A stretch of DNA of 27,422 nucleotides from a virus. The notes below the pieces were generated by a model that was not told the DNA's origin, did no database searches, and was given only the letters and a program-made list of their open reading frames with translations. Positions 3 to 20,360 of this stretch are shown here, piece after piece; the stretch's first letter is position 1, and each line of letters opens with the position of its first letter. Both the position numbers and the translations under genes were made by a program. The stretch lies in the IMG/VR virus record IMGVR_UViG_3300035208_007474. One strand, written 5' to 3'.

Positions 3-227
3 ACAATTAAAGATTTGGACAAAGCAAATGCCGATATGCAGGGCGACACCAAAGCTTTGACAATGGCAAAAATTCAGAAACATCATATTGGTGATTTAAC
101 TGTGATTGCCGAAGAAGGTGGAAAACACGCCGATAAAGCTGCTCTGATGTTGTTCTGGTGGCATAATGGAGTTCTTGTGGGCAACCGTGACCTACGGACA
201 ATTTTTGATGAGTTTGATGCACAATAA
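3..227 (+). CDS. 3' end of a gene that runs off the window's left edge (frame open back to position 3, first in-frame start TTG 15); hypothetical protein
   Basis: ORF track 15..227; the frame stays open upstream to the window edge; it is followed directly by an intrinsic terminator. Confidence 0.4.
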   Translation, partial: TIKDLDKANADMQGDTKALTMAKIQKHHIGDLTVIAEEGGKHADKAALMLFWWHNGVLVGNRDLRTIFDEFDAQ

Positions 228-1344: not shown

Positions 1345-1815
1345 ATGATTGTCTTATTAGTTGGTTGTATAAGTTCGGGGAAAAGCACTTGGTCTAGGAA
1401 ACGTGCATCTGAAGGTTGGATAACTATTAACGATGATAATATAATAACCTTGTTGCATGGTGGTGATTATACTTTATATAATAAGGCATTAAAACCTTTT
1501 TATAAATCTATTGAATCACACATTCTTCATATGGCAGTAGCAATGGGTCTAAATGTAATAGTTGATAAAGGAGTCAATATTAGCAGGAGAGCCAGAAGTC
1601 GATGGATAGCTCTTGCCAAAAGTTTGGATACACCAATCGAAGCTAGAGTTTTCCCTAAATTTTCCCCCGAAATACATGCCAAAAAAAGATTTGAGTCTGA
1701 CGCTCGTGGTAAGTCATATAAAGATTGGCTAGAAGCTGCTCAAAAGCACGAAAAAGAATATGAAATACCTACTGTGAAAGAAGGATTTACAAGAATAGTC
1801 TCGTCGGACGATTAG
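1345..1815 (+). CDS. Polynucleotide 5'-kinase, kinase domain only (T4 Pnk-like P-loop kinase; no phosphatase domain)
   Basis: LLVGCISSGKSTWSRK matches T4 Pnk LTIGCPGSGKSTWARE; the downstream RRARSRW..ARVF / KKRFESDARGKS blocks are collinear with the T4 Pnk kinase domain. Confidence 0.7.
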   Translation: MIVLLVGCISSGKSTWSRKRASEGWITINDDNIITLLHGGDYTLYNKALKPFYKSIESHILHMAVAMGLNVIVDKGVNISRRARSRWIALAKSLDTPIEARVFPKFSPEIHAKKRFESDARGKSYKDWLEAAQKHEKEYEIPTVKEGFTRIVSSDD

Positions 1816-2735
1816 TATTTATTTTCTTTTAAAAAATGTTGATATGTTTTAGATATACCCTCTTCTAATTCTATCTTATGTTGCCATCCTAGATTATGTA
1901 ATTTTGATAAATCTAATAGTTTTTGAGGCGTTCCGTTTGGTCTAGAGGTATCATATTCTAAGCCGCCAGTGTATCCAACAGTTTTTTTGATTATTTCTGC
2001 AAGCTCTCTTATTGTAACGTCTTTGCCCGTTCCGACATTGATAATATCAGAACTGTTATAAGTATTCATTAAAAATATGGCTGCATCAGCCAAATCATCA
2101 ACATACATAAATTCTCTTTTGGGTTCTCCGTTGCCCCATAAAAGAACAGATGGTTGATTATGAATTTTGGCTTCATGTATTTTTCTGATTAATGCCGGGA
2201 GAACATGAGATTTTTCTAAATCGTAATGGTCATTTTGTCCATAAAGATTTGTAGGCATAAGGCAGATGCCATTAAATCCATATTGCTTTCTATATGCTTG
2301 TATCATTTGAATACCGGCAATTTTAGCGACAGCATAAGACTTATTTGTTTCTTCTAGAGGTCCGGTTAAGAAATATTCCTCTTTAATCGGTTGGGGGCAG
2401 AGACGTGGGTAAATGCAGCTTGACCCCAATAAGAGAATTTTTTTTACATTAGTTTGATAAGCTACGTTTATTACATTTGTTTGTATCATTAAATTATCGT
2501 AAATAAACTCGGCAGGGTAAGTATCGTTAGCCGCAATGCCGCCAACTTTCGCCGCAGCCAAAAATACATAATCGGGTTTTTGATGATTGAAAAACATTTT
2601 AACGGCAGATTCTCTTTTTAAATCAAAACTTGATGTAATGACATCGGTATAACCAGATTTTTTTAGTTGACGGCATATTGAACTTCCAACTAAACCTTGG
2701 CCACCTAAGACCAATATTTTTTCATTTTTGTCCAT
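1812..2735 (-). CDS. fcl: GDP-L-fucose synthase (GDP-4-keto-6-deoxy-D-mannose 3,5-epimerase/4-reductase)
   Basis: 307 aa; N-terminal Rossmann ILVLGGQGLVGSSI, SYAVAKIAG (YxxxK), and Fcl/WcaG/GMER-like conservation along the full length. Confidence 0.9.
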   Translation of the reverse strand: MDKNEKILVLGGQGLVGSSICRQLKKSGYTDVITSSFDLKRESAVKMFFNHQKPDYVFLAAAKVGGIAANDTYPAEFIYDNLMIQTNVINVAYQTNVKKILLLGSSCIYPRLCPQPIKEEYFLTGPLEETNKSYAVAKIAGIQMIQAYRKQYGFNGICLMPTNLYGQNDHYDLEKSHVLPALIRKIHEAKIHNQPSVLLWGNGEPKREFMYVDDLADAAIFLMNTYNSSDIINVGTGKDVTIRELAEIIKKTVGYTGGLEYDTSRPNGTPQKLLDLSKLHNLGWQHKIELEEGISKTYQHFLKENKY

Positions 2736-3729
2736 TTTGTTTGTTGTCCTTTAAAAATTTTTCATCTTTAGCTAACTCAAGGTCATATAGTGTCATATCT
2801 GTTATCAGTTGTTCGAATGTTACCTCTGGTTTCCACCCTAAAATAGTTCTGGCTTTTGTGGAATCTCCTAAAAGAACATCAATTTCGGTAGGTCGATAAT
2901 ATTTGGGGTCTATTATTACGTGGTTTTCCCATTTGAGATTTACGAGTTCAAATGCAATTTTGACAACCTCTTTGATAGAATGTGTTTCTCCTGTGGCAAT
3001 TACGAAATCATCCGGTTGGTTTTGCTGAAGCATAAGCCACATTGCTTTCACATAATCTGTTGCTGCTCCAAAATCTCTTTGAGACTCTAAGTTCCCCAAA
3101 TATACTTTATCTTGTAGTCCACACGCAATTCTAGTTGCCGCTCTTGTTATTTTTCTTATAACAAAAGTTTCTCCACGTCTTCGCCCGCTATGGTTAAAAA
3201 GAATGCCATTTGAAATAAACATATCGTATGCTTCTCTGTAGTTTCTGGCGTACCAGAATGCGGCTAACTTTGAAACACCATAAGGGCTTCTGGGACAAAA
3301 AATCGTGTTTTCATTTTGCGGTGGAGGGGAGTTCCCGAACATTTCGCTAGAAGAAGCTTGATAGACTTTAATTTTTTTGCCCAATATGTTTTGTGCATTT
3401 TTTACGGCTTCGAAAACATTAAATGCCCCTACTCCGGTAACCAATGACGTATAAATTGGAATGTCGAAAGACAATTTGACATGGGATTGTGCGGCTAAGT
3501 TGTAGACTTCATCAGGATTTATTTCAACAATGAGATTTTCTAATGAAGAATAGTCTGAAACATCGCCGTGGTGTAAATTGAGTCTATCGAAGATGTGGTC
3601 TATGCGTCCGGTGTTGAAGGTACTACTTCGTCTAATAATGCCATGAACGGAGTAATCGTTTTCCAACAGCAAATCGGCAAGATGACTTCCGTCCATTCCA
3701 GTTATGCCAGTAATCAATGCTTTTTTCAT
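2722..3729 (-). CDS. gmd: GDP-mannose 4,6-dehydratase
   Basis: 335 aa; ALITGITGMDGSHLADLLL, YGVSKLAAFWYARNYREAY, and Gmd-family conservation throughout; overlaps fcl by 14 nt as an operon. Confidence 0.9.
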   Translation of the reverse strand: MKKALITGITGMDGSHLADLLLENDYSVHGIIRRSSTFNTGRIDHIFDRLNLHHGDVSDYSSLENLIVEINPDEVYNLAAQSHVKLSFDIPIYTSLVTGVGAFNVFEAVKNAQNILGKKIKVYQASSSEMFGNSPPPQNENTIFCPRSPYGVSKLAAFWYARNYREAYDMFISNGILFNHSGRRRGETFVIRKITRAATRIACGLQDKVYLGNLESQRDFGAATDYVKAMWLMLQQNQPDDFVIATGETHSIKEVVKIAFELVNLKWENHVIIDPKYYRPTEIDVLLGDSTKARTILGWKPEVTFEQLITDMTLYDLELAKDEKFLKDNKQNGQK

Positions 3730-4859: not shown

Positions 4860-5528
4860 ATGAGTAAAGTAACTAATCATCCCCAAGTACTTGTGGCTTT
4901 TGAGGAACAGGCGCAGAAAGCTGTTCAAGAGGCACAGCTTGCTGAAGCCAAAGCAATTCTTTTCCGTTATCGTGCCAGTCTGTGCGAACAAGCTCAGGCA
5001 GTTAGGTCCGACACGGAAAAGATTATGTCCGAAATGACAGCCAAGCGTGAGGACATCGAGAAGCAGATTGTCGATATCGACAACAAAATTGTTGAAGTTG
5101 ACAAAGGTCAGATTCCTGCTAATATGCCAGAATTGACCGTTGCCGCCATGCCAAAACGTGGTCGTCCAGTCGGCGTAAAGGCCAAAAAGGCTGGTCGTCC
5201 TGCAAAGGCCAAAAAGGCTGGTCGTCCTGCAAAGGCCAAAAAGGCTGGTCGTCCTGCGAAAGTAAAGGCGACAAAGCGTGGCCGTCCGCTCCATACTTCC
5301 AGAGCGCATAATGAGCTTCCGTTGCGTCAGGTCGTTACCAACGTCCTGAAGGGAGCCAAGAATGGCCTGAACTTGACCGAATTGGTCGAAGCTATCGTCA
5401 AAACCGGCTATAAGTCGAAGACGAAAGACGATTTCGCAAAAATCGTCTATCAGGCGGTTTACAAGCTCTGCAAAGAAAAAACGGCGACCAAAGAGGCTGC
5501 AACCAAGAAGTATCGTCTCGTCGCTTAA
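4860..5528 (+). CDS. AT-hook / histone H1-H5-like DNA-binding protein (N-terminal coiled coil, 5 GRP AT-hooks, C-terminal linker-histone-like winged helix)
   Basis: KRGRPVGVKAKKAGRPAKAKKAGRPAKAKKAGRPAKVKATKRGRP; the C-terminal LTELVEAIVKTGYKSK...KKYRLV resembles the H1 globular domain. Confidence 0.75.
   Translation: MSKVTNHPQVLVAFEEQAQKAVQEAQLAEAKAILFRYRASLCEQAQAVRSDTEKIMSEMTAKREDIEKQIVDIDNKIVEVDKGQIPANMPELTVAAMPKRGRPVGVKAKKAGRPAKAKKAGRPAKAKKAGRPAKVKATKRGRPLHTSRAHNELPLRQVVTNVLKGAKNGLNLTELVEAIVKTGYKSKTKDDFAKIVYQAVYKLCKEKTATKEAATKKYRLVA
5181..5261 (+). repeat. 3 x 27-nt near-perfect tandem repeat (gccaaaaaggctggtcgtcctgcaaag) encoding AKKAGRPAK x3 inside the AT-hook gene
   Basis: Direct reading of the sequence; the third copy has a single substitution. 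Confidence 0.9.
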
Positions 5529-5553
5529 AACGGAAAACAGGTTTTTCTGTAAT

Positions 5554-5593
5554 GCTCCACTCGTAAAAAAATGCGAGTGGAGCGTTTTTTTTC
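5554..5593 (+). terminator. Rho-independent terminator (GCTCCACTCG-loop-CGAGTGGAGC + T9)
   Basis: 10-bp perfect stem followed by a T-run, 26 nt after the stop at 5528. Confidence 0.7.
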
Positions 5594-5671
5594 TTCCGTT
5601 TTTGAAACACTATACTATACTAATCTAGACCCCGATGCAGTTGGTTCCCCCCGGCCAACTGCTCAAAGAAG

Positions 5672-5707
5672 CCCCGACAGTCTCCCCCCGCTGTTGGGGT
5701 TTTTTTA
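5672..5707 (+). terminator. Second rho-independent terminator (CCCCGACAG-tctccccccg-CTGTTGGGG + T7); may be the 3' end of a small RNA
   Basis: 9-bp stem (one G-U pair) plus a T-run; preceded by a second hairpin (5637-5662) with a similar C-rich loop. Confidence 0.55.
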
Positions 5708-5790
5708 TTGGGAAATTCCAAACACAAAATTGTATGAAAAACGACAAATACTTGATGTTTAAAAGGTTATAAAGAAGTACGCTTTTGTCG

Positions 5791-5819
5791 TTTACAATTG
5801 CTTGTTGCCTAAATACAAT
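5791..5819 (+). promoter_or_regulatory. sigma70-like promoter TTTACA-N17-TACAAT for clpX
   Basis: Hexamers at 5791-5796 and 5814-5819; RBS GGAG 9 nt before ATG 5844. Confidence 0.5.
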
Positions 5820-5843
5820 GGGTAAAAGAAGGAGTGAGTGTTT

Positions 5844-7115
5844 ATGGCAAAGACAACCGAAGCAACTAAAGACAAAGACGTATGTAATTTTTGTGGTAAG
5901 TCGTGGCAGAAAGCAGGCGTAGGGCAGCTTGTGGAAAGTAAAATTGCCAAGAAAAAAGGACTTCCCAATGTGCGTATTTGTGCCAATTGCATAGCGATGG
6001 CAAATAACCTGTTGCAAGCCGAGCGACAGCAACGTGTAAAAACAGACAGCGATAGAGTTCTTAAAGCTCTTCCGTCTCCAAAGAAAATCGTGGACCATCT
6101 AGACCAGTATGTAATAGGGCAAGATGCGGCCAAGCGTAGTCTGGCTATTGCTGTTGTTAATCATTACAAACGATTAGTGGCAGAAACAAGCGAACAAGAT
6201 TCAGATGTACAATTGGAAAAATCCAATATTCTTATGATTGGTCCCACAGGTTGTGGCAAGACCCTTTTGATTCAAACATTGGCTAAAATGCTTGAGGTTC
6301 CATTAGCCATTGGTGACGCCACATCTTTGACAGAAGCCGGATATGTTGGAGATGATGTTGAAAATTTGCTTTTGCGATTGATTCAAGCCGCAGATAACAA
6401 TATTGAATTAGCACAGCGTGGAATTATTTACATTGACGAAATTGATAAAAAACGAAAAACTGGTGGTAATGTTTCTATCACAAGGGACGTGAGTGGCGAG
6501 GGTGTGCAGCAAGCTTTGCTTAAGATTATCGAAGGTACTACCGCTAATGTGCCGCCTCAAGGCGGTCGAAAGCATCCTGAGCAAGTATGTATCCCATTTG
6601 ATACTCGTCATACACTGGTAATTTGTGGTGGTACGTTTGTCGGTTTGGAAGATATAATTATCAATCGTATCGGGCGATGTGGTTTTGGTTTCGGTGTAAA
6701 ACCGACAGAATCCACTGAAACCCAAGATAATATTTTGGCTCGGGTAACTCCACAAGACCTCGTTGAATTTGGTATGATTCCCGAATTTATTGGGCGACTT
6801 CCCGTAATCACTCATGTGACATCATTGGACGAAGATGCGTTGTGTAGTATTTTAACTGAACCCAAAAATGCTTTAATTCGTCAATATCAGAAACTATTTG
6901 ATATGGATGGAGTAAAATTAGTGGTCGAAGATAATGCGCTAAAGGCAATTGTCAAAGCCGCTAAAATAAAAGGAACTGGTGCAAGGGCAATGCGTGGTAT
7001 TCTGGAAGAAGTAATTTCTCCCGCCATGTTTGATTTACGTTCGATGGCCGGTAAAACCTACACTCTCACAGAAACCATTGTTCAACAAATTCTTGAAAAT
7101 AATAAGGCAGCATAA
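5844..7115 (+). CDS. clpX: ATP-dependent Clp protease ATP-binding subunit ClpX (N-terminal C4 zinc-binding domain + AAA+)
   Basis: CNFCGK...CANC zinc finger; Walker A GPTGCGKT; Walker [10 protein letters not shown]; ClpX-family conservation along the full length; I chose the ATG at 5844 over the GTG at 5838. Confidence 0.9.
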
Positions 7116-7117
7116 AA

Positions 7118-7555
7118 ATGAAAACGGAAGCGATTTTAAAAGAAATTGTCAAGGACATGAAGAGTATAGTAAACATAGCAGGAAGTTTGCTGGTAGAGTC
7201 TCTCCCTGTCACCGCCACATGTGACCTTTTGATTATTTTAGATGAAGAATGGAATAAATTTTGTGATTCCAACCCAGAGACAATGGAGGCAATTGTGGAT
7301 GAGTTGGTTAAAAGAGAAGTTTATTCAATAACACCAATCATGAAAGAAAAAGGTTGGACTGCATTACAAATGGTTGAAAATTATGGTGCCAATTGGCACA
7401 TTTATGCGAAACCATTAACTTGTCCATATTGTAAGACTGACCTTCGTGACCCAATGGGACCGCCATTTAAGCGGGAAATAGGGCAATACGACCAAGCCAA
7501 AGACCGAACGATTTGTTTTCTTTGTCCGAATTGTCAAAATATTGTAAAGAGTTAA
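7118..7555 (+). CDS. Hypothetical protein with C-terminal zinc ribbon (CPYC...CPNC)
   Basis: 145 aa; starts 3 nt after the clpX stop. Confidence 0.5.
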   Translation: MKTEAILKEIVKDMKSIVNIAGSLLVESLPVTATCDLLIILDEEWNKFCDSNPETMEAIVDELVKREVYSITPIMKEKGWTALQMVENYGANWHIYAKPLTCPYCKTDLRDPMGPPFKREIGQYDQAKDRTICFLCPNCQNIVKS

Positions 7556-7557
7556 TT

Positions 7558-7836
7558 ATGTTTGGACAATTGAACAACGAAGACAATTATTATGCGTATC
7601 TTAAAACACAAGCACCAAAGGACGCAGACTGTAAAAAAGTGCTTTGGTGTCTTGAGGCTACGTTAGACCATTTTCTTTATGAACAAGAGCAAGATGAAAA
7701 ATTTCGGCACGATTGTGCTGAAATTCTTTTAAGAGCTTATTTTATAGATAGGTCAGCGTTCGACGGGGCAGATGCTAGATTAAAACATTTAGCACAGATT
7801 TTGGCTTATTTCGAAGAACTTCTCGCTCATGCTTGA
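7558..7836 (+). CDS. Hypothetical protein (92 aa)
   Basis: I chose the internal ATG at 7558, 2 nt after the previous stop, rather than the overlapping 7513 start. Confidence 0.45.
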   Translation: MFGQLNNEDNYYAYLKTQAPKDADCKKVLWCLEATLDHFLYEQEQDEKFRHDCAEILLRAYFIDRSAFDGADARLKHLAQILAYFEELLAHA

Positions 7837-7868
7837 TTTCTTTTGAAAAACAAGTAAAATTATAGTCC

Positions 7869-8273
7869 ATGACGATTTTATTTATATATGGTACGTTAAA
7901 ACGTGGATTTCATAATCATTGCCTATTAGATGGGCAAACATTTATATCCGTGGCTTTCACTAAGTCGATATATAGAATGTATGATTATGGTCATTTTCCT
8001 GTTATGGTTGTGGACATGGACGGCGTAAATATTCACGGGGAATTGTGGGAAGTGAATGATTTTTGTTTAAAGCAATTAGACAGACTAGAAGGCATCCCAC
8101 ATTTTTATGACAGATTGCCTGTTGAATTACTAGCCTCACTTCGATGTACCGGACGCCATCGCCGCCCGAAGGCCAAGGTTCATAATATTAAAGCTGAAAC
8201 TTATATCTGGCAGGGAGAAGTAGTTGGGTTAGAAGATTGTGGCCATAAATGGATTAAGAAGGCTAGGAAATAA
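7869..8273 (+). CDS. Gamma-glutamyl cyclotransferase / AIG2-like family protein
   Basis: N-terminal IYGTLKRG (YGSL-type motif), GELWEV, LDRLEGIP..YDR, all typical of the GGCT/AIG2 fold. Confidence 0.65.
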   Translation: MTILFIYGTLKRGFHNHCLLDGQTFISVAFTKSIYRMYDYGHFPVMVVDMDGVNIHGELWEVNDFCLKQLDRLEGIPHFYDRLPVELLASLRCTGRHRRPKAKVHNIKAETYIWQGEVVGLEDCGHKWIKKARK

Positions 8274-8296
8274 AATATTTTGTTAAAGGCAAAACT

Positions 8297-8437
8297 ATGA
8301 CAAACTCAAAACAGAAATGTTGTTGTTGTGGTGAACCGATTATAGGAATTAAACATCCAACTCCCGAAGGAGATATGTGTGATTCTTGTTACATAGAATG
8401 TGTTTGTAATGACGATGACGATGATGGTTGTCCGTGA
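8297..8437 (+). CDS. Small Cys-rich, acidic protein (46 aa: KCCCCGEP...CDSCYIECVCNDDDDDGCP)
   Basis: Below the ORF-track cutoff; I translated it by hand; AAAGG 7 nt upstream of the ATG; 11 Cys in 46 aa. Confidence 0.3.
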   Translation: MTNSKQKCCCCGEPIIGIKHPTPEGDMCDSCYIECVCNDDDDDGCP

Positions 8438-8458
8438 CTGTTAAAATAAGGAATTAAT

Positions 8459-8776
8459 ATGGAAACAATTACCACTCAAGAGCAATTTAATGAAATCACA
8501 TCACAGGGCGTTTCGCTAATTGATTTTGCGGCTAGTTGGTGTATGCCTTGCAAAATGATGGCCCCATTGTTAGATGACTTAGGTAAAAAATTTGAAGGTA
8601 GGGCTAGATTTGCGACGTTAGACGTAGATGAAGCAGCGAAAGTGGCCGTTCCTTTTAATATATCAGCGGTCCCCACTATCATGATTTTTAAAGACGGCAA
8701 TATGGCTGACAAGCTGGTGGGTATGCAAAATCAAGAAACCCTAGAAACTGCTGTAGAGGCAGTGCTTAAAAAATAG
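8459..8776 (+). CDS. trx: Thioredoxin
   Basis: 105 aa; WCMPCK active site (WCxPC); thioredoxin length and fold pattern (..PTIMIFKDG..); RBS AAGGAA. Confidence 0.9.
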   Translation: METITTQEQFNEITSQGVSLIDFAASWCMPCKMMAPLLDDLGKKFEGRARFATLDVDEAAKVAVPFNISAVPTIMIFKDGNMADKLVGMQNQETLETAVEAVLKK

Positions 8777-8828
8777 CTTTACGTTTGCCTTTTCCAATTT
8801 CTATAATTTACCTGTCTAGGAGAAAATT

Positions 8829-9401
8829 TTGAAAATTGATTTAGGTAAATTATTAGTAAGCCAAGAGGAATTAAGAGATGTGCAACAAGTCGTTGGCATG
8901 GTTCGTCATGTCTATAATCATGGTTTATGGACACAAGAAGTGCTAGACAAGTTTTCTCCTGATGGGTCTAATAAATTAATCGCTGTTACTCGTTTTCCAG
9001 ATGATAAGTTGCTTTTGCACGATGGACACCATAGATTATTTGCCACTTTATTAGCTGGTCGAAGGGTCTTGATGCCGGAAGAATATGTGTTAACAGACAG
9101 GCAATATGCGGATTACTTGGAAATAAACTTTAAGACTGGTTGGCTAACTCCGTTTTGTCCGATGAAAGAGATTAGAATTGCCGATTTTATCAATTTTAAG
9201 AGAGAAGCCGCAGCCATCGTCGCAATAAATGAAGAGCGAGCTAAGAGTTTTATCGTGGCAAATAGACAAAGATATGTTCGACTTCGAACACTGCATACGT
9301 TGGAAGATTTAGTAAAACGATATGAAAATGAACTCAAGAGACAAGATATATGGCAATTGTCTGATGCTTGCGCCCAACGGCAAGCCAATGTGCCGGTGTG
9401 A
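8829..9401 (+). CDS. ParB/sulfiredoxin-like nuclease-domain protein
   Basis: LLLHDGHHRLFA (ParB N-terminal DGxHR motif); TTG start 6 nt after AGGAG. Confidence 0.55.
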   Translation: MKIDLGKLLVSQEELRDVQQVVGMVRHVYNHGLWTQEVLDKFSPDGSNKLIAVTRFPDDKLLLHDGHHRLFATLLAGRRVLMPEEYVLTDRQYADYLEINFKTGWLTPFCPMKEIRIADFINFKREAAAIVAINEERAKSFIVANRQRYVRLRTLHTLEDLVKRYENELKRQDIWQLSDACAQRQANVPV

Positions 9402-10074
9402 TGACAAAAAAGTTAATTGGTATCTGTCTAGGAATTTGGCAAAAGTTGTTGCTGAGAATCCGCCAATAATTCAATTAACCTTTGTTCCAAAAGGTGAAGG
9501 GCACGAAGACTTATATTATCTTCTCAAAAAGAATAATGTTTGTGCCGTTTGTGGTGGTTCCAAAGAGTTGACAAGACATCATTTAGTACCACACGAATAT
9601 CGCAGGCACTTCCCAGATTATATTAAAAAACATAATTCATATGATATTTTATTATTGTGTGTTGACTGTCATGTGAAATATGAAGAAACAGCAGTTCAGT
9701 TTAAAAAGCAAATAGCAGAAGAGATGGGGATTCAATTTCACAATCCAAGGAATCTCAATAAACGGTTAGTTGTTGCCAAGCGCATCGCCAATACATTGTT
9801 AACTCATGGTGATGCGATACCGCAGTCTAAAAAAGATATTTTATTGGCAAGAATTTCGGAAAGTTTGGACAAAAAAAATGTGGATTTTGCGGAGTTGTCT
9901 GCGATAGCTGCTCTTGAATTAGAGCTACCGCCGCCAACGAAGAATCAAGCTCAACAAGTTGTCGAGCAGTTACCCGATTTGTTTACGTTTGTTGTGCGGT
10001 GGCGGGAACATTTTGTCGAAACGATGAGTCCGAAATTTTTACCGGCGTATTGGGAAACCGATAAGTCATTATAA
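9322..10074 (+). CDS. HNH-motif protein (CxxCGG..HHLVP..N..LLLCxxCH); start uncertain (9322, 9364 or 9388)
   Basis: CAVCGGSKELTRHHLVPHE...HNSYDILLLCVDCHVKYE matches the HNH beta-beta-alpha-metal consensus; with the 9322 start it overlaps the upstream gene by 80 nt. Confidence 0.5.
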   Translation: MKMNSRDKIYGNCLMLAPNGKPMCRCDDKKVNWYLSRNLAKVVAENPPIIQLTFVPKGEGHEDLYYLLKKNNVCAVCGGSKELTRHHLVPHEYRRHFPDYIKKHNSYDILLLCVDCHVKYEETAVQFKKQIAEEMGIQFHNPRNLNKRLVVAKRIANTLLTHGDAIPQSKKDILLARISESLDKKNVDFAELSAIAALELELPPPTKNQAQQVVEQLPDLFTFVVRWREHFVETMSPKFLPAYWETDKSL

Positions 10075-10117
10075 AGAGCTAGTTAAAATGTACATTGGGT
10101 TCTCCGTAAGGAGGTAA

Positions 10118-10786
10118 ATGAGTAATTTTAAACGATATGTCGAAGAAGGAAGAGAATGGCGTGGGAAATATCCCAAGACATATCATTTCAGTTTTTCGCC
10201 AAATCTTCAAAATGATGACAGGATGTTAGAAGATGACAATATCCTTGTTGGAAAGAATGTCGTTGTAAGCGAAAAATTAGACGGCGAAGGAACCGGGATG
10301 ACCAGAATTGTATGTCACGCTCGTTCTTTGGATTCTAGGGACCATCCTTCCAGACATTGGGTGAAAGCGTTGCATGCTTCTGTTAAACAAAACATACCTG
10401 AAGGTTGGCATTTTTTTGGGGAAAATTTATTTGCCGCCCATTCGATTCGATACGATAAATTGCCGACATATTTCTTTTTGTTTATGATTGTTAATGATAA
10501 ACAAATGTGTTTGTCGTGGCAGGATACAAAAGAGTGGGCAGAATTGCTCGGACTACAAACCGTACCTGTTCTTTATGAAGGCCCATGGGATATTGAAAAA
10601 GTACAAGCTTGTTACACAGGTCAATGCCCTTGGGGAGAAGCCCAAGAGGGATATGTGGTTCGCAATGCGGCAATGTTTCCGATTAAAGATTTTTCACTTA
10701 ATATGGGGAAATGTGTGCGATACAACCATGTTCAGACAGGTGATTTTTGGATGAAAAATTGGGTTCAGAATAAATTGTCCAAATAA
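10118..10786 (+). CDS. ATP-dependent RNA ligase, Rnl2-like nucleotidyltransferase domain
   Basis: Motif I VSEKLDGEGTGM (KxDG), motif III FFGENLFA, motif IIIa YFFLFMIV, motif IV EGYVVRN and motif V GKCVRY, collinear with the T4 Rnl2 N-terminal domain; strong RBS AAGGAGG. Confidence 0.65.
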   Translation: MSNFKRYVEEGREWRGKYPKTYHFSFSPNLQNDDRMLEDDNILVGKNVVVSEKLDGEGTGMTRIVCHARSLDSRDHPSRHWVKALHASVKQNIPEGWHFFGENLFAAHSIRYDKLPTYFFLFMIVNDKQMCLSWQDTKEWAELLGLQTVPVLYEGPWDIEKVQACYTGQCPWGEAQEGYVVRNAAMFPIKDFSLNMGKCVRYNHVQTGDFWMKNWVQNKLSK

Positions 10787-10809
10787 ATTGTAAATGCACT
10801 CTAATACTA

Positions 10810-10837
10810 TTGACTTTTGAGCGATATTACTTATAAT
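10810..10837 (+). promoter_or_regulatory. Strong sigma70-like promoter TTGACT-N16-TATAAT, placing the tandem repeat array in the 5' UTR of the methyltransferase gene
   Basis: Hexamers at 10810-10815 and 10832-10837. Confidence 0.55.
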
Positions 10838-10854
10838 TAATTTTAACTTTTACT

Positions 10855-10974
10855 AACTTCCCTTTCAACTTCCTTTTCAACTTCCCTTTCAACTTCCCTT
10901 TCAACTTCCCTTTCAACTTCCCTTTCAACTTCCCTTTCAACTTCCCTTTCAACTTCCCTTTCAACTTCCCTTCC
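10855..10974 (+). repeat. 10 x 12-nt perfect tandem repeat (AACTTCCCTTTC), intergenic or leader
   Basis: Read directly: 8 identical copies, one C->T variant (copy 2) and a degenerate last copy; it ends 9 nt before ATG 10984. Confidence 0.95.
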
Positions 10975-10983
10975 TTCGGTGCT

Positions 10984-11892
10984 ATGACGGCACGATTTAT
11001 AATGACAAGGATGAAATTGAATATACGAAATAATATGCCTAGTTTTTTTAGATATCCGGGTGGAAAATCTAAATTAAGAATTCAAATCACAAATGCTTTG
11101 AATAAATGGTCTTCGGATACCACAGAGTATAGGGAGCCATTCTTTGGTGGTGGGTGCATTGGAATAGAGTTTCTAAAGTGTAATCCAAACATTAAAGATA
11201 TTTGGATTAACGATAAAGACGATGGTATCTCTTGCTTATGGACATCAGTGATAAATTATCCAGAGTTGCTAAAGGATTTGGTTCATAATTTCAAACCGTC
11301 TGTTGAAAAGTTCGATGAATTTAAAAGTAAGCTTATTGCGGCACCAATTCTAAAGTCAGACGAGGAAGTTGTGCAATATGGTTTTATGAAATTAGCCATT
11401 CATCAAATATCATATTCTGGATTGGGAACAAAATCTGGTGGTCCTTTAGGTGGTAGAGAACAAAAGTCTAAATATCTTATTGATTGTCGATGGTCGGTTG
11501 ATTACATATGCAAAAAAATAGATTTATTGCATGATATGTTTTCAAAATTATCTGTCAAGGATAAAAAGTGTTCTTGTTTAGATTTTGCCGATGTCATTGC
11601 CGACGCTGGAAGTGCCGTTATATATCTTGACCCGCCATATTATGTAAAAGGAAATGACTTGTATCAAGTCGGCTTCACTCAAGAAGACCATTCTCGCCTT
11701 GCTGACTTATTAAAAAAAACCCATTTGTGGGTTTTGTCTTATGACGACTGTGACGAAATTAGAGAATTATATAAGTGGGCACATATAAAAGAAATTCATG
11801 AAGTGAATTACAGTATCACCGCATTAAAAGATAAGCAAACGGGCAATAGATTGTCTCGTGCTAAAACAGAATTATTGATTACACCATTTTAA
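10984..11892 (+). CDS. dam: Dam-family (D12 class) N6-adenine DNA methyltransferase; the true start may be the internal ATG at 11014 or 11035
   Basis: FFRYPGGKSKL (Dam FLKWAGGKxxL), EPFFGGG (motif I), DPPY (motif IV); overall T4 Dam / DpnIIA / EcoDam architecture. Confidence 0.8.
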   Translation: MTARFIMTRMKLNIRNNMPSFFRYPGGKSKLRIQITNALNKWSSDTTEYREPFFGGGCIGIEFLKCNPNIKDIWINDKDDGISCLWTSVINYPELLKDLVHNFKPSVEKFDEFKSKLIAAPILKSDEEVVQYGFMKLAIHQISYSGLGTKSGGPLGGREQKSKYLIDCRWSVDYICKKIDLLHDMFSKLSVKDKKCSCLDFADVIADAGSAVIYLDPPYYVKGNDLYQVGFTQEDHSRLADLLKKTHLWVLSYDDCDEIRELYKWAHIKEIHEVNYSITALKDKQTGNRLSRAKTELLITPF

Positions 11893-11915
11893 GAGTCATT
11901 ACAGAAAGGAACTCT

Positions 11916-12548
11916 ATGTTAGACATTATTAATAACAATATATGTTTTTATCAACAACCACTTCAGATTTCTTCGCAAAAGCACATTAGTTGGCTTAAGA
12001 AATCAGAACTTCATGCTGAAAATATGTTTGAATCTAAGAAGTATTATGCCTCTCGCAGGGCTGCGGTGCCAGCCAAATTACAACACGATATAACGAATGG
12101 CAAATATGGTGAATTCATCGCAGCAGAATTTTTCCCAAATTTTGGGGTTCCCTACCTTGCACCGGATTTAGTTGTTAAAAAATCAGATGAAAAGAATTGG
12201 GACGCAGACTTGCCGTATTCTAAGGTGGGAAATTTTTTGGATTGTCATGTAAAAACCATCGACCAAGAGAGTAAAGAGAAGTATAATTTTAGTTGGACAT
12301 TCCAGAAAAAAAACACTTATGGTACTGGCGGCGAAGACCGATTGCTCAGTCATCCAGAATGCAAAGACCTAGTGGCGTTTGTTTTAGTACCTACTCTTTG
12401 GGGGGAATCAGAGGCACAGGTGGTGGCGTCCGCTCCATGGAATCTGGTTTTTCCACTTTTGAGAGACCCGCTTCTCCCGAAGTACATTGGGATAAAAAAA
12501 TGTCTGTATTACAAGGACTTAAGAGAACAACCCCACCATGTTCTGTGA
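11916..12548 (+). CDS. Hypothetical protein (210 aa) immediately downstream of dam; possible nuclease, not established
   Basis: RBS AAAGGAA; no motif I can assert with confidence. Confidence 0.5.
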   Translation: MLDIINNNICFYQQPLQISSQKHISWLKKSELHAENMFESKKYYASRRAAVPAKLQHDITNGKYGEFIAAEFFPNFGVPYLAPDLVVKKSDEKNWDADLPYSKVGNFLDCHVKTIDQESKEKYNFSWTFQKKNTYGTGGEDRLLSHPECKDLVAFVLVPTLWGESEAQVVASAPWNLVFPLLRDPLLPKYIGIKKCLYYKDLREQPHHVL

Positions 12549-13789: not shown

Positions 13790-13879
13790 AATTTGCTAGG
13801 CGGGACTAGAATGCTGTTTCCCAATAATTAAATTGTACATGGGGAAGATGTGGATGAAAAATTTCCGAAAGGTGATAAA

Positions 13880-14464
13880 ATGAGTAAATTACAAGATGAC
13901 ATAGTTCAAACATTTAATCAAGGAATGAGTATCGTAGAAACAGCAGAAAAATATGGAATGTCTTATGAAGTTATTTATTGCATAATCACTAAGGCTATCG
14001 GTAATGCGGCAGTTAAAGAACGAAAACGGGATAGAAATAGGTCGGTCATACAAGATTTTACTGACGGTATGAGTCGTTCTAGTTTATGCGATAAATATGA
14101 TTTGTGTTGGGTTACTATTTCTAATATTCTTAAGGCTACTATGAGTAAATGGTCCATCAAAAGGAATGAATTATTAAATCGCAATTTACAAATCATGCAA
14201 GATTACCAACATATTAGTAGACAAGAATTAATGAACAAATATAACTTAAGTTGGACTAGACTTCATGAAATTATCAGTAAAGCAGGGGGAACGGTTAAAC
14301 ATAAACAATATTCATTGCAGTTGTCCTTAAATCTTGGTTTTAAAATTTTGAAAAAGTTATTGTTGAATAAAGATAGTCAATCTATTAGCGAAGAATTAGG
14401 TTGTTCTGTTCAATACGTAAGCTGTATTAGAAAATTGGGACGGGAAAATGGGCTGATAAGTTAA
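13880..14464 (+). CDS. DNA-binding protein with four tandem ~45-aa helix-turn-helix repeats
   Basis: Repeats IVQTFNQGMSIVETAEKYGMSYEVIY / VIQDFTDGMSRSSLCDKYDLCWVTISNI / QIMQDYQHISRQELMNKYNLSWTRLHEI / KLLLNKDSQSISEELGCSVQYVSCI; RBS AAGGTG 8 nt before ATG 13880. Confidence 0.55.
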   Translation: MSKLQDDIVQTFNQGMSIVETAEKYGMSYEVIYCIITKAIGNAAVKERKRDRNRSVIQDFTDGMSRSSLCDKYDLCWVTISNILKATMSKWSIKRNELLNRNLQIMQDYQHISRQELMNKYNLSWTRLHEIISKAGGTVKHKQYSLQLSLNLGFKILKKLLLNKDSQSISEELGCSVQYVSCIRKLGRENGLIS

Positions 14465-14512: not shown

Positions 14513-14546
14513 GCCTTTGTAACGATTGTTATTTAAGAGAATAGAC

Positions 14547-16142
14547 ATGGGTATTAAACTTGAAAAAAACACGTTTCCAGTAAGCCATGGGGCAGAAGAT
14601 TTCCAGTGTTTCGGTCCTCCTGCCACAAAAGATGGCGTATTTGAAGGGACCATGATTGCTGATTGTGGTTGCTTTACTCAGGATGGGAAAGATTCGAATA
14701 AATATTATCACAGTGCGGTTGTTCAGTCTAAATGTAATCAAAAATGGTACGTTTATTTTGAGTGGGGACGAGTAGGGGCAAATCATCCATCATTTCAATT
14801 TACTGATTGTTCAAATAAGTCTGATGCCGAACATGATTATTGTGACCAGCTTCATCAGAAAAATGATAAGCGTGGCGAATGGATTCAACATCCATCTTTG
14901 GGTAAAATTCTTCGAGCGAAAACAGGAAAAGATTGTTATTTGGTAAGGCCGCAGGCCAAAAGAAGTACCGGCCTTCCAGATGCTAGAACCATTGTTCACA
15001 ATGAAGGTGTTTCTGTTGTTAAAACATCCAAGCCAACTGGCAAGGTTTCGACGGTCAATGTAGACAAAGCCACACTTGAGTTAATGCGGGATTTGAATGT
15101 TGGTACAGTTAATTATACCAGAGCTTCTATGGCTGACGCCGCAATTCCAACTCAAGTAGCTTTGGATGAAGCTCGTTCTATTTTGATTGCAGCACAACAA
15201 CGTGTTTCCAATGTGGGTGATGATGTCGAAGACCAAATCAAAGATACGGAATTGAGGCATTTAACGGCACTGATGTATGGCCGAATTCCTAAGAAGAAAG
15301 ACCGCAACGCCTCACCGGATAAATGGATTCTATCAGCGTCTAATATTGGTACGTGGAACCTAGACATTGATGCATTTGAGTCGGCTTTAAAAACTGCCGA
15401 TATGGGACAAGACCAAGCAGACCCATTTGATGGCATGCGACTTCAGATGCGGCATTTGTCTAAAAAAGGTAACCCAATTGGTGAATTTATTCATGGTTGG
15501 GCACCGAGTGCAACACGTAATATGCATAATTATTTGAAGGAAAAATTGCAAATAATTAATGTATGGGAGATTGAACGTGAAGGTGATGCGGCAAAGATAG
15601 CTAGAGTTCAAGCTGCAATTGCTGCACAAAATTGGAAACCGTCAGAAAGACCGCTGCATCAACCTGCTCGGTCGGACCTTTCTAGAAACATTGCTAAGAT
15701 TTATGCCAGAACTAACACATGTTTACTTTTTCACGGCACACGTACTGTAAATGTGTCGGGTCTGCTGCGTGAATCTTGGCGATTACGTAATAATCTGGTT
15801 GGGGTGCAACTTACCGCTGCTATGTTCGGTCCGGGTGTTTATTGGGCTGATGATTGGAAAAAGAGCGCAGGTTATACCAGCATGTCCGGTGCATATTGGA
15901 CAAAGGGCGGCGGTGGTATTGGTGGTCGTGGTGCATTTATGTTTATAGCTGATGTTGTGCTTGGTGCATCTTATCTTGCCCCAAGAGCAGAAGGTTTTAC
16001 GAAACCACCAAATGGTTATCATTCGGTTTTCGGCAAGGCCAATTTTACAAAGGGTAGTTATGGCGAAATTGCCAATAACGAATTTATTACTTATAACAGC
16101 GACCAGTGTGTGGCCAGATATTTAGTAGAATTCGCTAGGTAA
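14547..16142 (+). CDS. Poly/mono(ADP-ribose) polymerase (PARP) homolog: N-terminal WGR domain, helical region, C-terminal PARP catalytic domain with an H-Y-E triad
   Basis: WYVYFEWGRVG (WGR signature); catalytic LLFHGTRTVNVSGLL (H-G-T), GPGVYWADDWKKSAGY (Tyr), NEFITYNSDQ..YLVEF (Glu, as in PARP1 YNEYIVY); I set the start at ATG 14547 downstream of the promoter. Confidence 0.8.
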   Translation: MGIKLEKNTFPVSHGAEDFQCFGPPATKDGVFEGTMIADCGCFTQDGKDSNKYYHSAVVQSKCNQKWYVYFEWGRVGANHPSFQFTDCSNKSDAEHDYCDQLHQKNDKRGEWIQHPSLGKILRAKTGKDCYLVRPQAKRSTGLPDARTIVHNEGVSVVKTSKPTGKVSTVNVDKATLELMRDLNVGTVNYTRASMADAAIPTQVALDEARSILIAAQQRVSNVGDDVEDQIKDTELRHLTALMYGRIPKKKDRNASPDKWILSASNIGTWNLDIDAFESALKTADMGQDQADPFDGMRLQMRHLSKKGNPIGEFIHGWAPSATRNMHNYLKEKLQIINVWEIEREGDAAKIARVQAAIAAQNWKPSERPLHQPARSDLSRNIAKIYARTNTCLLFHGTRTVNVSGLLRESWRLRNNLVGVQLTAAMFGPGVYWADDWKKSAGYTSMSGAYWTKGGGGIGGRGAFMFIADVVLGASYLAPRAEGFTKPPNGYHSVFGKANFTKGSYGEIANNEFITYNSDQCVARYLVEFAR

Positions 16143-18111: not shown

Positions 18112-18393
18112 ATGAAATATTTTCTTGAGTGTGGTGATATCAGAATTTCAATAAACGGACCAGACGAAAATACAGTAGCTCGTCAGTTGGTAAAGCAGAT
18201 GTTGATGGAACAGGCTGATATGGGTCAAATAGTTATGGTGAGCGAAAAGGATTTTTGTTGTAAACGAAGAAATCCTGTTTTGTTAATAACACAAGGATTA
18301 ATTAATGACATCCAAACCAATACCTTCTCTCCACCGCTTGGATTGTTTAACTCCTTCCGAACGATGGATTCGATTGTGGAAAGCAACATTTGA
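18112..18393 (+). CDS. Hypothetical small protein; overlaps the Nudix gene by 89 nt, so its reality is uncertain
   Basis: ORF-track entry; a hairpin at 18083-18106 lies immediately upstream. Confidence 0.3.
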   Translation: MKYFLECGDIRISINGPDENTVARQLVKQMLMEQADMGQIVMVSEKDFCCKRRNPVLLITQGLINDIQTNTFSPPLGLFNSFRTMDSIVESNI

Positions 18394-18922
18394 TGCTGGA
18401 CGAATATGGACATTCGTTAGCAGAAAAGAAAAACCTGAAATCATAACTGGCATATCTTCTGCCGATGCCGTTGTCATTATTGCTTCTGTCTTGCAGTCGG
18501 GGATTCCAAAATTAGTAACCATTAAAGAATATCGGCCAGCTATTGGGGCGTATGAATATGGATTTCCTGCTGGTCTGATTGACGGTGGTGAAAAGCCCGA
18601 AGATGCCGCAGTAAGGGAACTCAAAGAAGAAACCGGATTGGATACGGTGCATATTTATCAGGTAACCCCGCCGTTGTATTCGTCTTCCGGCCTTACAGAT
18701 GAATCCACTATTTTTGTTTATCTTGAAGCAACGGGTACGCTCTCCGCTCATAATCAGGAAGAAACCGAAAATATTGAACCAATGCTATTAGAGGCAAAAG
18801 ATATTATCAATTTATTAGAGCAGAAGGAAAAATTTGCTGAGGGAAGAATTTCGTGTAAATATTGGCCGATTGCTCAGATGTTTGCTACTACTGGTTTATT
18901 ATGTTCGAGGGAAAAAATATGA
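18305..18922 (+). CDS. Nudix hydrolase, ADP-ribose pyrophosphatase-like
   Basis: Perfect Nudix box GLIDGGEKPEDAAVRELKEETGL (Gx5Ex7REUxEExGU); the N-terminal extension plus the PAG..E core follow the ADPRase/NudF layout; RBS AAGGA 7 nt upstream. Confidence 0.8.
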   Translation: MTSKPIPSLHRLDCLTPSERWIRLWKATFDAGRIWTFVSRKEKPEIITGISSADAVVIIASVLQSGIPKLVTIKEYRPAIGAYEYGFPAGLIDGGEKPEDAAVRELKEETGLDTVHIYQVTPPLYSSSGLTDESTIFVYLEATGTLSAHNQEETENIEPMLLEAKDIINLLEQKEKFAEGRISCKYWPIAQMFATTGLLCSREKI

Positions 18923-19319: not shown

Positions 19320-19367
19320 GTGGGGGAAACTAGTTTACAGGTCATCTCAAAAGGATATAATCTTGAT

Positions 19368-20360
19368 ATGGAAATGAAGGATAAAATCCAAGGTATGTTT
19401 TTAGGCACGTTTATCGGTGATGCGCTCGGTTTTCCTGTAGAGGGCTGGTCTTCCGAACGGATTGCTGAAACATATGGTCGTATCATTAGTTTTGTGAAGC
19501 CTGATAAACATAAGTGGTTCGGTGAAAAAGAAGTTGGTACTCCTACTGACGATTGGCAATTAACAAAAGCTGTTGCCGAATCTTTAATCATTAGTGGAAT
19601 GGATATGGATGCGATAGCTGAAGCACATAAAGCCGCATTCAACGAATCAATTGTTGGATGGGGCGGCACAACCTCTAGTGCTGTCCGAAATTTACTAAAT
19701 GGAGCAACGTGGGAAAAGTCGGGGCTTCCTATTGGGATGGGAAATGGATGTGCCATGAAGATTGCTCCCGTAGCTGCTTTAGTCGCCGCTAAGTATCAAT
19801 CTGGTAAAGTTGTAGATTTTATTGTCAAATTAACCTGCATGACTCATCGTAATGTCTTAGCCGTTTGCACGACTTTGGCTCAAGCAGAAGCAATTTATTA
19901 TTGTTTAACTGCCCAAAAATTTAACGCCATCAAATTTGCTAATCGAATTATTGTCGGCAGTGTGCTGGGGGAATTCTTGAGCGAAGATATTGTTACCGAA
20001 GGTATGACTATTGATTTTCCTGATACCACGCAACGATTGAAGTTGTTGAAGGATTATAAAAAATACGACGACCAGAGAATTATCAAAGAATTTCAGGGAA
20101 CAGCTTACGCATACAATAGCATTCCGTTTTCCTTGATGTTTTTTATCAGAAATCCGAATTCTATTAATGCTATGTACGATGTAATTGCGGCTGGTGGCGA
20201 TACAGATACAAATGCTTCAATGGTTGGCTCACTTTTAGGTGCGTTGAACGGAGTTGACATATTTCCAATGGAATTGGTGAATCAAATGTCTTCAAAGTAT
20301 CGGGACGAAGTGACAGATGTCGCTAATCGTTTTTACAACAAATTTTTTGAGGAAAAATAA
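19368..20360 (+). CDS. ADP-ribosylglycohydrolase (ARH/DraG family)
   Basis: GMFLGTFIGDALGFPVEG, GTPTDDWQLT and AAGGDTDTNASMVGSLLGALNG are the three hallmark ARH metal-binding blocks; I chose ATG 19368 over the GTG at 19320. Confidence 0.85.
   Translation: MEMKDKIQGMFLGTFIGDALGFPVEGWSSERIAETYGRIISFVKPDKHKWFGEKEVGTPTDDWQLTKAVAESLIISGMDMDAIAEAHKAAFNESIVGWGGTTSSAVRNLLNGATWEKSGLPIGMGNGCAMKIAPVAALVAAKYQSGKVVDFIVKLTCMTHRNVLAVCTTLAQAEAIYYCLTAQKFNAIKFANRIIVGSVLGEFLSEDIVTEGMTIDFPDTTQRLKLLKDYKKYDDQRIIKEFQGTAYAYNSIPFSLMFFIRNPNSINAMYDVIAAGGDTDTNASMVGSLLGALNGVDIFPMELVNQMSSKYRDEVTDVANRFYNKFFEEK

Follow-up and report, generated by a model that had tools for sequence, protein, structure and literature searches.

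What use could a virus make of ClpX, the unfoldase half of the ClpXP protease, if it supplied no ClpP to go with it? The question is raised by IMG/VR virus record IMGVR_UViG_3300035208_007474, a stretch of 27,422 nucleotides (hereafter, the window) that was taken as a whole 27.4-kb metagenome contig and that carries a clpX gene. A first reading, made from the letters alone (the sequence-only reading), had described a stand-alone clpX with its own promoter and no clpP anywhere in 27 kb, and had offered two roles for its product, i.e., hijacking of host ClpP or ClpP-independent remodelling of the MuA type. Our results lead us to lean modestly towards a phage ClpX that is expressed early and caps host ClpP by means of an FGF docking loop, in a lineage of huge phages.

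The likely start of clpX is the ATG at 5844, within an enclosing open reading frame (ORF) at 5838-7115 on the plus strand. Its product scored 549.1 and 529.6 bits against the NCBIfam ClpX equivalogs TIGR00382 and NF003745 (cut-offs of 359 and 370.75, respectively), and ClpX chains in PDB were matched over almost its whole length at E values of 1e-113 to 1e-124. An identity as HslU was rejected on a score of 193.6 bits against a cut-off of 362. In an alignment to Escherichia coli ClpX (P0A6H1; the reference used is identical to PDB 8e91_A at 423 of 424 positions), each functional motif was present in the window protein, including the catalytic motifs of AAA+ enzymes (Walker A, Walker B, Arg finger, and sensor II) and the loops that grip the substrate (pore-1 GYVG, pore-2, and RKH; Table 1). 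Identity to the window protein is ~50% for E. coli ClpX and reaches ~60% for other bacterial ClpX; the window protein shares with them the order of a putative C4 zinc-binding domain followed by the large AAA+ domain and the small one, as well as the IGF-type loop. Unlike the bacterial genes, however, the window gene is phage-encoded and has no clpP (or tig or lon) neighbor. It also matched PHROG 4339, the phage ClpX family, at 338.5 bits; the annotation of that family is "unknown function." Judged by its sequence, the ORF is a genuine, complete, phage-borne ClpX with intact pore loops. The sequence-only reading, which had placed a complete ClpX at 5844-7115 and had singled out pore-1 and the IGF loop for inspection, was right as to coordinates and identity (549 bits, with ATPase and pore motifs intact); GYVGDD is intact and the IGF loop is kept as FGF.

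A neighbor-joining tree was built from 198 sequences, comprising 80 ClpX proteins from IMG/VR, the homologues of 380-470 amino acids among the 120 best, E. coli ClpX, and the window protein. In this tree, window ClpX grouped with P0003, P0004, P0005, P0007, P0008, P0013, P0023, P0050, L002-L005, L069, and L020 in a viral clade of 15 members that was separate from 123 mostly bacterial sequences. ClpX of LR756511.1, a 595,163-bp record deposited as an uncultured phage, is counted with the clade in the alignment, which covers 16 members. Window ClpX is ~57-60% identical to many bacterial ClpX, of which the named ones are mostly from Planctomycetota, and the zinc-domain motif VGP(L/M)VEG is common to the viral clade and its nearest bacterial (Planctomycetota) homologues. 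This likeness hints at an ancestral source of the viral ClpX and is no identification of a host.

The loop by which ClpX would engage ClpP is kept throughout this clade. The IGF loops of ClpX supply most of the contact with ClpP (PMC7112951; PMC9035409); in E. coli, their side chains pack into pockets of ClpP, and ClpP carrying R192K no longer binds ClpX (PMC7112951). Window ClpX has FGF in place of IGF and Pro in place of Val at position 274 (E. coli numbering), within a loop that is of near-normal length in the alignment. FGF was also seen in 6 of 119 other closest database homologues; among the viral clade it is unique to the window, and IGF, LGF, MGF, or VGF stands in its place elsewhere, so that all 16 members have a hydrophobic-Gly-Phe tripeptide. 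The same holds for 80 of the 81 viral ClpX examined, the exception having IGY. The docking loop is thus, from these alignments, apparently under conservation across the viral clade. Since I268L, F270L, and V274A are each cited as weakening ClpP binding in E. coli (Amor 2019, as cited in PMC7112951) and the window protein has Phe at 268 and Pro at 274, its loop is probably tuned to one particular ClpP.

The zinc-binding domain is more variable. All four predicted ligand Cys residues are present in window ClpX, but Pfam zf-C4_ClpX (PF06689) scored only 22.8 bits against a cut-off of 27 because an insertion of ~10 residues separates the two Cys pairs, which are 28 residues apart rather than 18. 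The Zn-finger of the sequence-only reading therefore stands as regards its ligands and falls short as regards the Pfam profile. Of the 15 clade members with an N-domain, LR756511 among them, 11 show insertions of 3-17 residues in the zinc hairpin by alignment, and none was present in E. coli ClpX or in the five Planctomycetota ClpX aligned.

If the phage ClpX docks, the next question is whose ClpP it meets. A tblastn search of the window with E. coli ClpP (a query verified by a 100% match and a full-length PDB match) returned only noise (E ≥ 1.6), and the CLP_protease domain was absent from Pfam scans of 31 of the larger window ORFs (ClpX and 30 others). No clpP adjoins clpX, which has a promoter-like site of its own and terminator-like hairpins upstream, a layout other than that of a clpP-clpX operon. 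The earlier statement that 27 kb hold no clpP was therefore borne out. Calling the gene "stand-alone" on that basis was not warranted, as the window covers only ~5-15% of a jumbo genome. The longest contig on record with the exact window protein is 27,422 bp, the length of the window, and the protein was otherwise found on just one duplicate contig of 4.8 kb. Lack of clpP from 27 kb is by itself weak evidence, since other jumbo phages have clpP up to ~390 kb from clpX. ClpP lay in the flanks (up to 10 kb on either side of clpX) of only 2 of the 80 IMG/VR viral loci (78 were without it), and phage clpX is therefore rarely part of a clpP-clpX operon. Canonical ClpP, 46-64% identical to that of E. 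coli, was found in seven other ClpX-bearing jumbo-phage groups (G, PA5oct, Atu_ph07, Phosso, SCTP-2, Lak, and LR756504) at 0.07-390 kb from clpX. By record coordinates, the two genes are adjacent in Bacillus phage G (66 nt apart) and are separated by 9.4 kb in the PA5oct group, ~27 kb across the record ends in Atu_ph07, 79 kb in SCTP-2, 81 kb in Lak-A1, 332 kb in LR756504, 350 kb in Phosso, and 386 kb in Lak-B5. A two-motif DNA pattern for ClpP (YINSPGG...IHxP) had at least 120 matches in IMG/VR.

The window represents some 5-15% of the genome of a huge phage, since its gene order matches that of contigs of 173-436 kb and of the 595-kb LR756511. Its genes, nearly all on one strand, encode a GDP-mannose dehydratase, an epimerase, two small kinases, CsrA, ClpX, GGACT, a thioredoxin, an RNA ligase, a Dam methylase, a Mor-like helix-turn-helix (HTH) protein, a WGR-PARP protein, a NUDIX protein, an ADP-ribosylglycohydrolase (ARH), and a Major-Vault-Protein-like product, together with many ORFs that belong to no family. 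Among these is a conserved block of non-structural genes of the host-takeover type (CoaE-like kinase, CsrA, ClpX, GGACT, thioredoxin, RNA ligase, PARP, and ARH). The CsrA-ClpX-GGACT neighborhood recurred in IMG/VR viral contigs of 173, 188, 204, and 436 kb (L002-L005) and in L069 and L020. The kinase, ClpX, GGACT, thioredoxin, and RNA ligase were likewise found in three Logan contigs (L082-L084), which also encode the T4-type Phage_30_3 family, and PARP in L082 and L083. LR756511 has homologues of 17 window ORFs, of which 11 are grouped around clpX in the same block (171-201 kb). It and L002-L005 and L069 belong to the same ClpX clade and have in common with the window the CsrA-ClpX-GGACT...PARP-ARH neighborhood, the variable zinc-domain insertion, and the hydrophobic-Gly-Phe tripeptide. 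However, their ClpX proteins are only 50-59% identical to that of the window, which alone has FGF and a 145-amino-acid ORF downstream of clpX. A megablast search of window positions 5000-12000 against a phage collection gave no match.

As one complete genome of this lineage, LR756511 allows the search for ClpP to be extended beyond the window. We reassembled it in full from 13 pieces, with one N left. The sole tblastn match to E. coli ClpP in the whole record (26% identity over 134 amino acids, E 1.6e-10) was a 202-amino-acid ORF at 584579-585187 (28579-29187 in piece L097), which scored 76.9 bits against PF00574 and whose best PHROG is "head maturation protease." The Ser-His-Asp triad is kept in this divergent Clp-fold protease. 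However, the residues at the positions of E. coli Y60, Y62, F82, M92, L114, L189, R192, and E51 are P, V, S, E, S, R, N, and H, respectively, and the conserved N-terminal axial-loop sequence is missing. Having neither a docking pocket nor R192, this protease was rejected as a partner of ClpX. Since the residues of the IGF pocket and R192 are replaced, LR756511 appears to hold ClpX without a docking-competent ClpP. With the divergent protease as query, no match was found in the window; ten other huge-phage contigs were matched, none of them a contig of the window clade. Likewise, no ClpP occurred within 10 kb on either side of clpX in the syntenic loci of L002-L005, L069, L020, and L082-L084. 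We also observed that the divergent protease gene sits among genes of RNA-repair type (CCA/poly(A) polymerase, HAD, SprT-like, and histidine phosphatase) rather than head genes, and that it has counterparts of 47-81% identity on eight further large contigs from IMG/VR (63-390 kb). It may serve as a prohead protease or in some other role.

The surroundings of clpX point to a transcription unit of its own. Two terminator-like hairpins separate it from the gene upstream, and a sigma-70-like promoter site and a Shine-Dalgarno sequence precede the start codon (Table 1). The promoter and terminators are consensus matches only, and at that level they fit the promoter proposed by the sequence-only reading. 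Since clpX lies behind a sigma-70-type promoter, it would probably be transcribed early by host RNA polymerase. The 145-amino-acid ORF that follows is probably co-transcribed with clpX. It was not seen beside clpX in any relative, being found only in L001 (the same phage), and is therefore no conserved partner of clpX. A PHROGs scan of the ORFs flanking clpX gave nothing and so yielded no candidate adaptor.

Table 1. Coordinates of clpX, its sequence motifs, and the features that flank it in the window.
Feature	Residues	Nucleotides	Strand	Basis or remark
clpX CDS	423 aa plus stop	5844-7115	+	NCBIfam equivalog and PDB ClpX matches
Putative N-terminal C4 zinc-binding domain	C14, C17, C46, C49	5883-5990	+	~10-residue insertion in hairpin
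Cys pairs CNFC / CANC	14-17 / 46-49		+	motif reading
Walker A GPTGCGKT	133-140	6240-6263	+	motif reading
Pore-1 loop GYVGDD	166-171	6339-6356	+	motif reading
Walker B IIYIDEIDK	194-202	6423-6449	+	motif reading
Pore-2 loop	205-215		+	motif reading
RKH loop GGRKHP	240-245	6561-6578	+	motif reading
ClpP-docking (IGF-loop) tripeptide FGF	281-283	6684-6692	+	position of E. coli I268-G269-F270
Arg finger IGRLP	316-320	6789-6803	+	motif reading
Sensor II TGARAM	378-383	6975-6992	+	motif reading
CsrA homologue	61 aa	4466-4651	-	PF02599; conserved upstream neighbor of clpX in phage clade
Terminator-like hairpin and T-run		5551-5596	+	hairpin 5551-5586, 15-pair stem then TTTTTTCTTC; ends upstream gene (4860-5528)
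Second terminator-like hairpin and T-run		5686-5706	+	hairpin 5686-5699; sets clpX apart from transcription upstream
Sigma-70-like promoter site TTTACA-17 nt-TACAAT		5791-5819	+	10 of 12 consensus matches; 25 nt upstream of start codon
Shine-Dalgarno GAAGGAG		5828-5834	+	9 nt before ATG 5844
ORF of no known family	145 aa	7118-7555	+	starts 2 nt after clpX stop
GGACT/AIG2-like gamma-glutamyl cyclotransferase		7869-8273	+	conserved downstream neighbor of clpX in clade

Taken as a mechanism, the phage ClpX, which keeps the features for hexamerizing, hydrolyzing ATP, gripping polypeptides, and docking to ClpP through FGF, would cap host ClpP14 to form a chimeric ClpXP protease. The phage's divergent zinc-binding N-domain, with its clade-typical insertion, would then govern the choice of substrates and adaptors. 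We infer docking to host ClpP, the timing of expression, and an altered specificity from sequence features; docking to host ClpP would best explain why the loop is retained in a lineage that seems to lack its own ClpP. Hijacking of host ClpP is accordingly the better of the two roles offered by the sequence-only reading, given the kept loop and the lack of a canonical ClpP in LR756511, with docking itself still inferred. Just short of probable, in our estimate, is the fuller proposal that a huge-phage lineage possessing only the unfoldase half commandeers host ClpP early, by way of the conserved docking loop and a remodelled zinc-binding domain, and so forms a chimeric protease that degrades host regulators or defense proteins of the phage's choosing. 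Several points weigh against docking to host ClpP. The evidence is limited to the part of the likely genome that the window covers, and LR756511 is a single genome and a distant relative, with ClpX 50% and PARP 53% identical to those of the window. FGF may fit only a particular ClpP, since I268L already weakens binding in E. coli, and the literature searches turned up no experimental work on a phage ClpX. Finally, because most other ClpX-bearing jumbo phages carry a far-off canonical ClpP, a phage ClpP hidden elsewhere has a substantial prior.

This last point is the core of the main rival, itself unlikely in our view, which holds that the phage has an ordinary two-part ClpXP whose canonical ClpP is encoded in another part of its genome, within the 150-570 kb that are unsequenced. 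The complete jumbo-phage records with clpX also hold canonical ClpP, from 66 nt to 386 kb away, and IMG/VR contig 3300020477_001008 carries both genes at separate places. However, canonical ClpP is missing from LR756511, the only complete genome in which the window's gene order occurs, and the nine syntenic loci described above have none within 10 kb of clpX on either side. The absence of ClpP from the window and of a docking-competent or canonical one from LR756511 would suit an unfoldase or remodeler that works without ClpP, whether in the disassembly of replication or transposition complexes, enzyme activation, virion assembly, or protein translocation. Such roles of ClpX are documented, e.g., that of mitochondrial ClpX with ALAS (PMC7547079), and translocase or assembly-chaperone roles have been proposed for phage ClpA and ClpX (Iyer et al.; PMC7824862). 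A role of this kind and docking to ClpP are not mutually exclusive, but a purely ClpP-independent role leaves unexplained why the docking tripeptide is kept across the viral clade and in nearly all viral ClpX, and there is no Mu-type transposase or structural gene nearby. The MuA-type remodeler of the sequence-only reading is disfavored because the tripeptide is conserved in all 16 clade members. As a candidate it was rejected, no transposase having been found; the only Mu-like feature of the window is a Mor-family/HTH protein of 204 amino acids (13850-14464, plus strand), with no accompanying transposase. We therefore regard a ClpP-independent role as less probable again than a hidden ClpP. 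Highly improbable is a non-viral origin, in which the window would be a piece of bacterial chromosome or plasmid with clpX apart from clpP. Pfam and PHROG scans found no virion, terminase, or portal gene in the window, and the similarity of its ClpX to bacterial, mostly Planctomycetota, homologues would suit such an origin. However, the gene order is common to the 595-kb uncultured-phage record and IMG/VR viral contigs, relatives encode the T4-type Phage_30_3 family, and window ClpX falls in a separate viral clade. The genes are moreover dense and co-oriented, many are without a family, and PARP, ARH, NUDIX, RNA ligase, and Dam make up a cargo such as jumbo phages typically carry.

Several other features of the window deserve mention. 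CsrA was 62-69% identical in L002, L003, L005, L069, and LR756511, in each case just upstream of clpX, and its presence suggests interference with post-transcriptional regulation in the host. Between the two terminator-like hairpins, a stretch of ~110 nt (5590-5706, plus strand) contains a further stem-loop at ~5640-5663 and a weak promoter-like sequence, overlaps a 63-amino-acid ORF (5571-5762), and has no Rfam match; this stretch may be a small RNA beside the gene for CsrA. No tRNAs and no Rfam families were found in the window as a whole. On the minus strand, a gene for GDP-mannose 4,6-dehydratase adjoins one for an NAD-dependent epimerase/reductase (1812-3729), and the two would together make up a pathway to a GDP-L-fucose-type sugar; homologues occur in LR756511 at other positions. 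A plus-strand cluster for ADP-ribose metabolism consists of a 538-amino-acid protein with WGR and PARP catalytic domains (14526-16142), a NUDIX hydrolase (18305-18922), and an ADP-ribosylglycohydrolase (19320-20360). PARP is 53-61% identical in LR756511 and L082/L083, and ARH is 38% identical in LR756511; phage PARPs receive only brief mention in PMC7824862.

An 846-amino-acid ORF at 23342-25882 (plus strand), 7 kb downstream of PARP, is similar to Major Vault Protein (MVP), with 88.8 bits for Pfam MVP_shoulder and 37 bits for Vault_3. Its residues 424-844 matched residues 425-879 of an 890-amino-acid eukaryotic MVP chain in the same order (E 4.7e-13), and its position recalls the pairing of MVP and vPARP in eukaryotic vaults. 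Full-length homologues (42-44% identity) were found only in the huge-phage records LR756500 (462 kb) and LR756501/LR756503 (735 kb), and none was found in LR756511. Among the papers that the literature search listed, none links "major vault protein" to jumbo or huge phages. This ORF may be more unusual than ClpX.

Phage ClpX is not new as a category. It has been noted in groups 2.2 and 3 of the jumbo phages (Iyer 2021; PMC7824862), Atu_ph07 is known to encode both ClpX (gp2) and ClpP (gp676; PMC6102473), and PHROG 4339 already gathers the family. The terms "phage ClpX," "viral ClpX," and "phage-encoded ClpX" are used in none of the papers that the literature search listed. Clp, proteases, and PARP go unmentioned in the huge-phage paper PMC7162821, and the PA5oct paper does not discuss that phage's ClpX or ClpP. 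The ClpX proteins of phage G (gp258), Atu_ph07 (gp2), PA5oct, SCTP-2, Lak, and Phosso are full-length, come from genomes of >200 kb, and are 40-50% identical to window ClpX. Window ClpX differs from those of these cultured and curated jumbo phages in belonging to a separate clade with its own conserved neighborhood, and these phages encode canonical ClpP whereas the window lineage, to judge by LR756511, does not. What is modestly new is therefore a distinct clade of huge-phage ClpX with a conserved gene neighborhood, a variable zinc-domain insertion, and apparently no partner phage ClpP.

As it stands, the finding is of a well-conserved, housekeeping-type gene of a class known in jumbo phages, and it holds no mechanistic surprise. 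The logic proposed here would resemble that suggested for the ClpS adaptors encoded by jumbo phages (PMC7824862), in which a phage protein redirects a host ClpP-based protease. The likeness is in logic only; the window phage would contribute an entire unfoldase ring, not a small adaptor. If docking to host ClpP is true, it would mean that a virus supplies the specificity-determining half of a host protease, a step beyond the proposed ClpS hijacks, and it would offer a tractable handle on the host proteins that huge phages must remove. Phages with ClpX only (the window clade) and those with both ClpX and ClpP (G, PA5oct, Lak, and others) would provide a ready comparative test.

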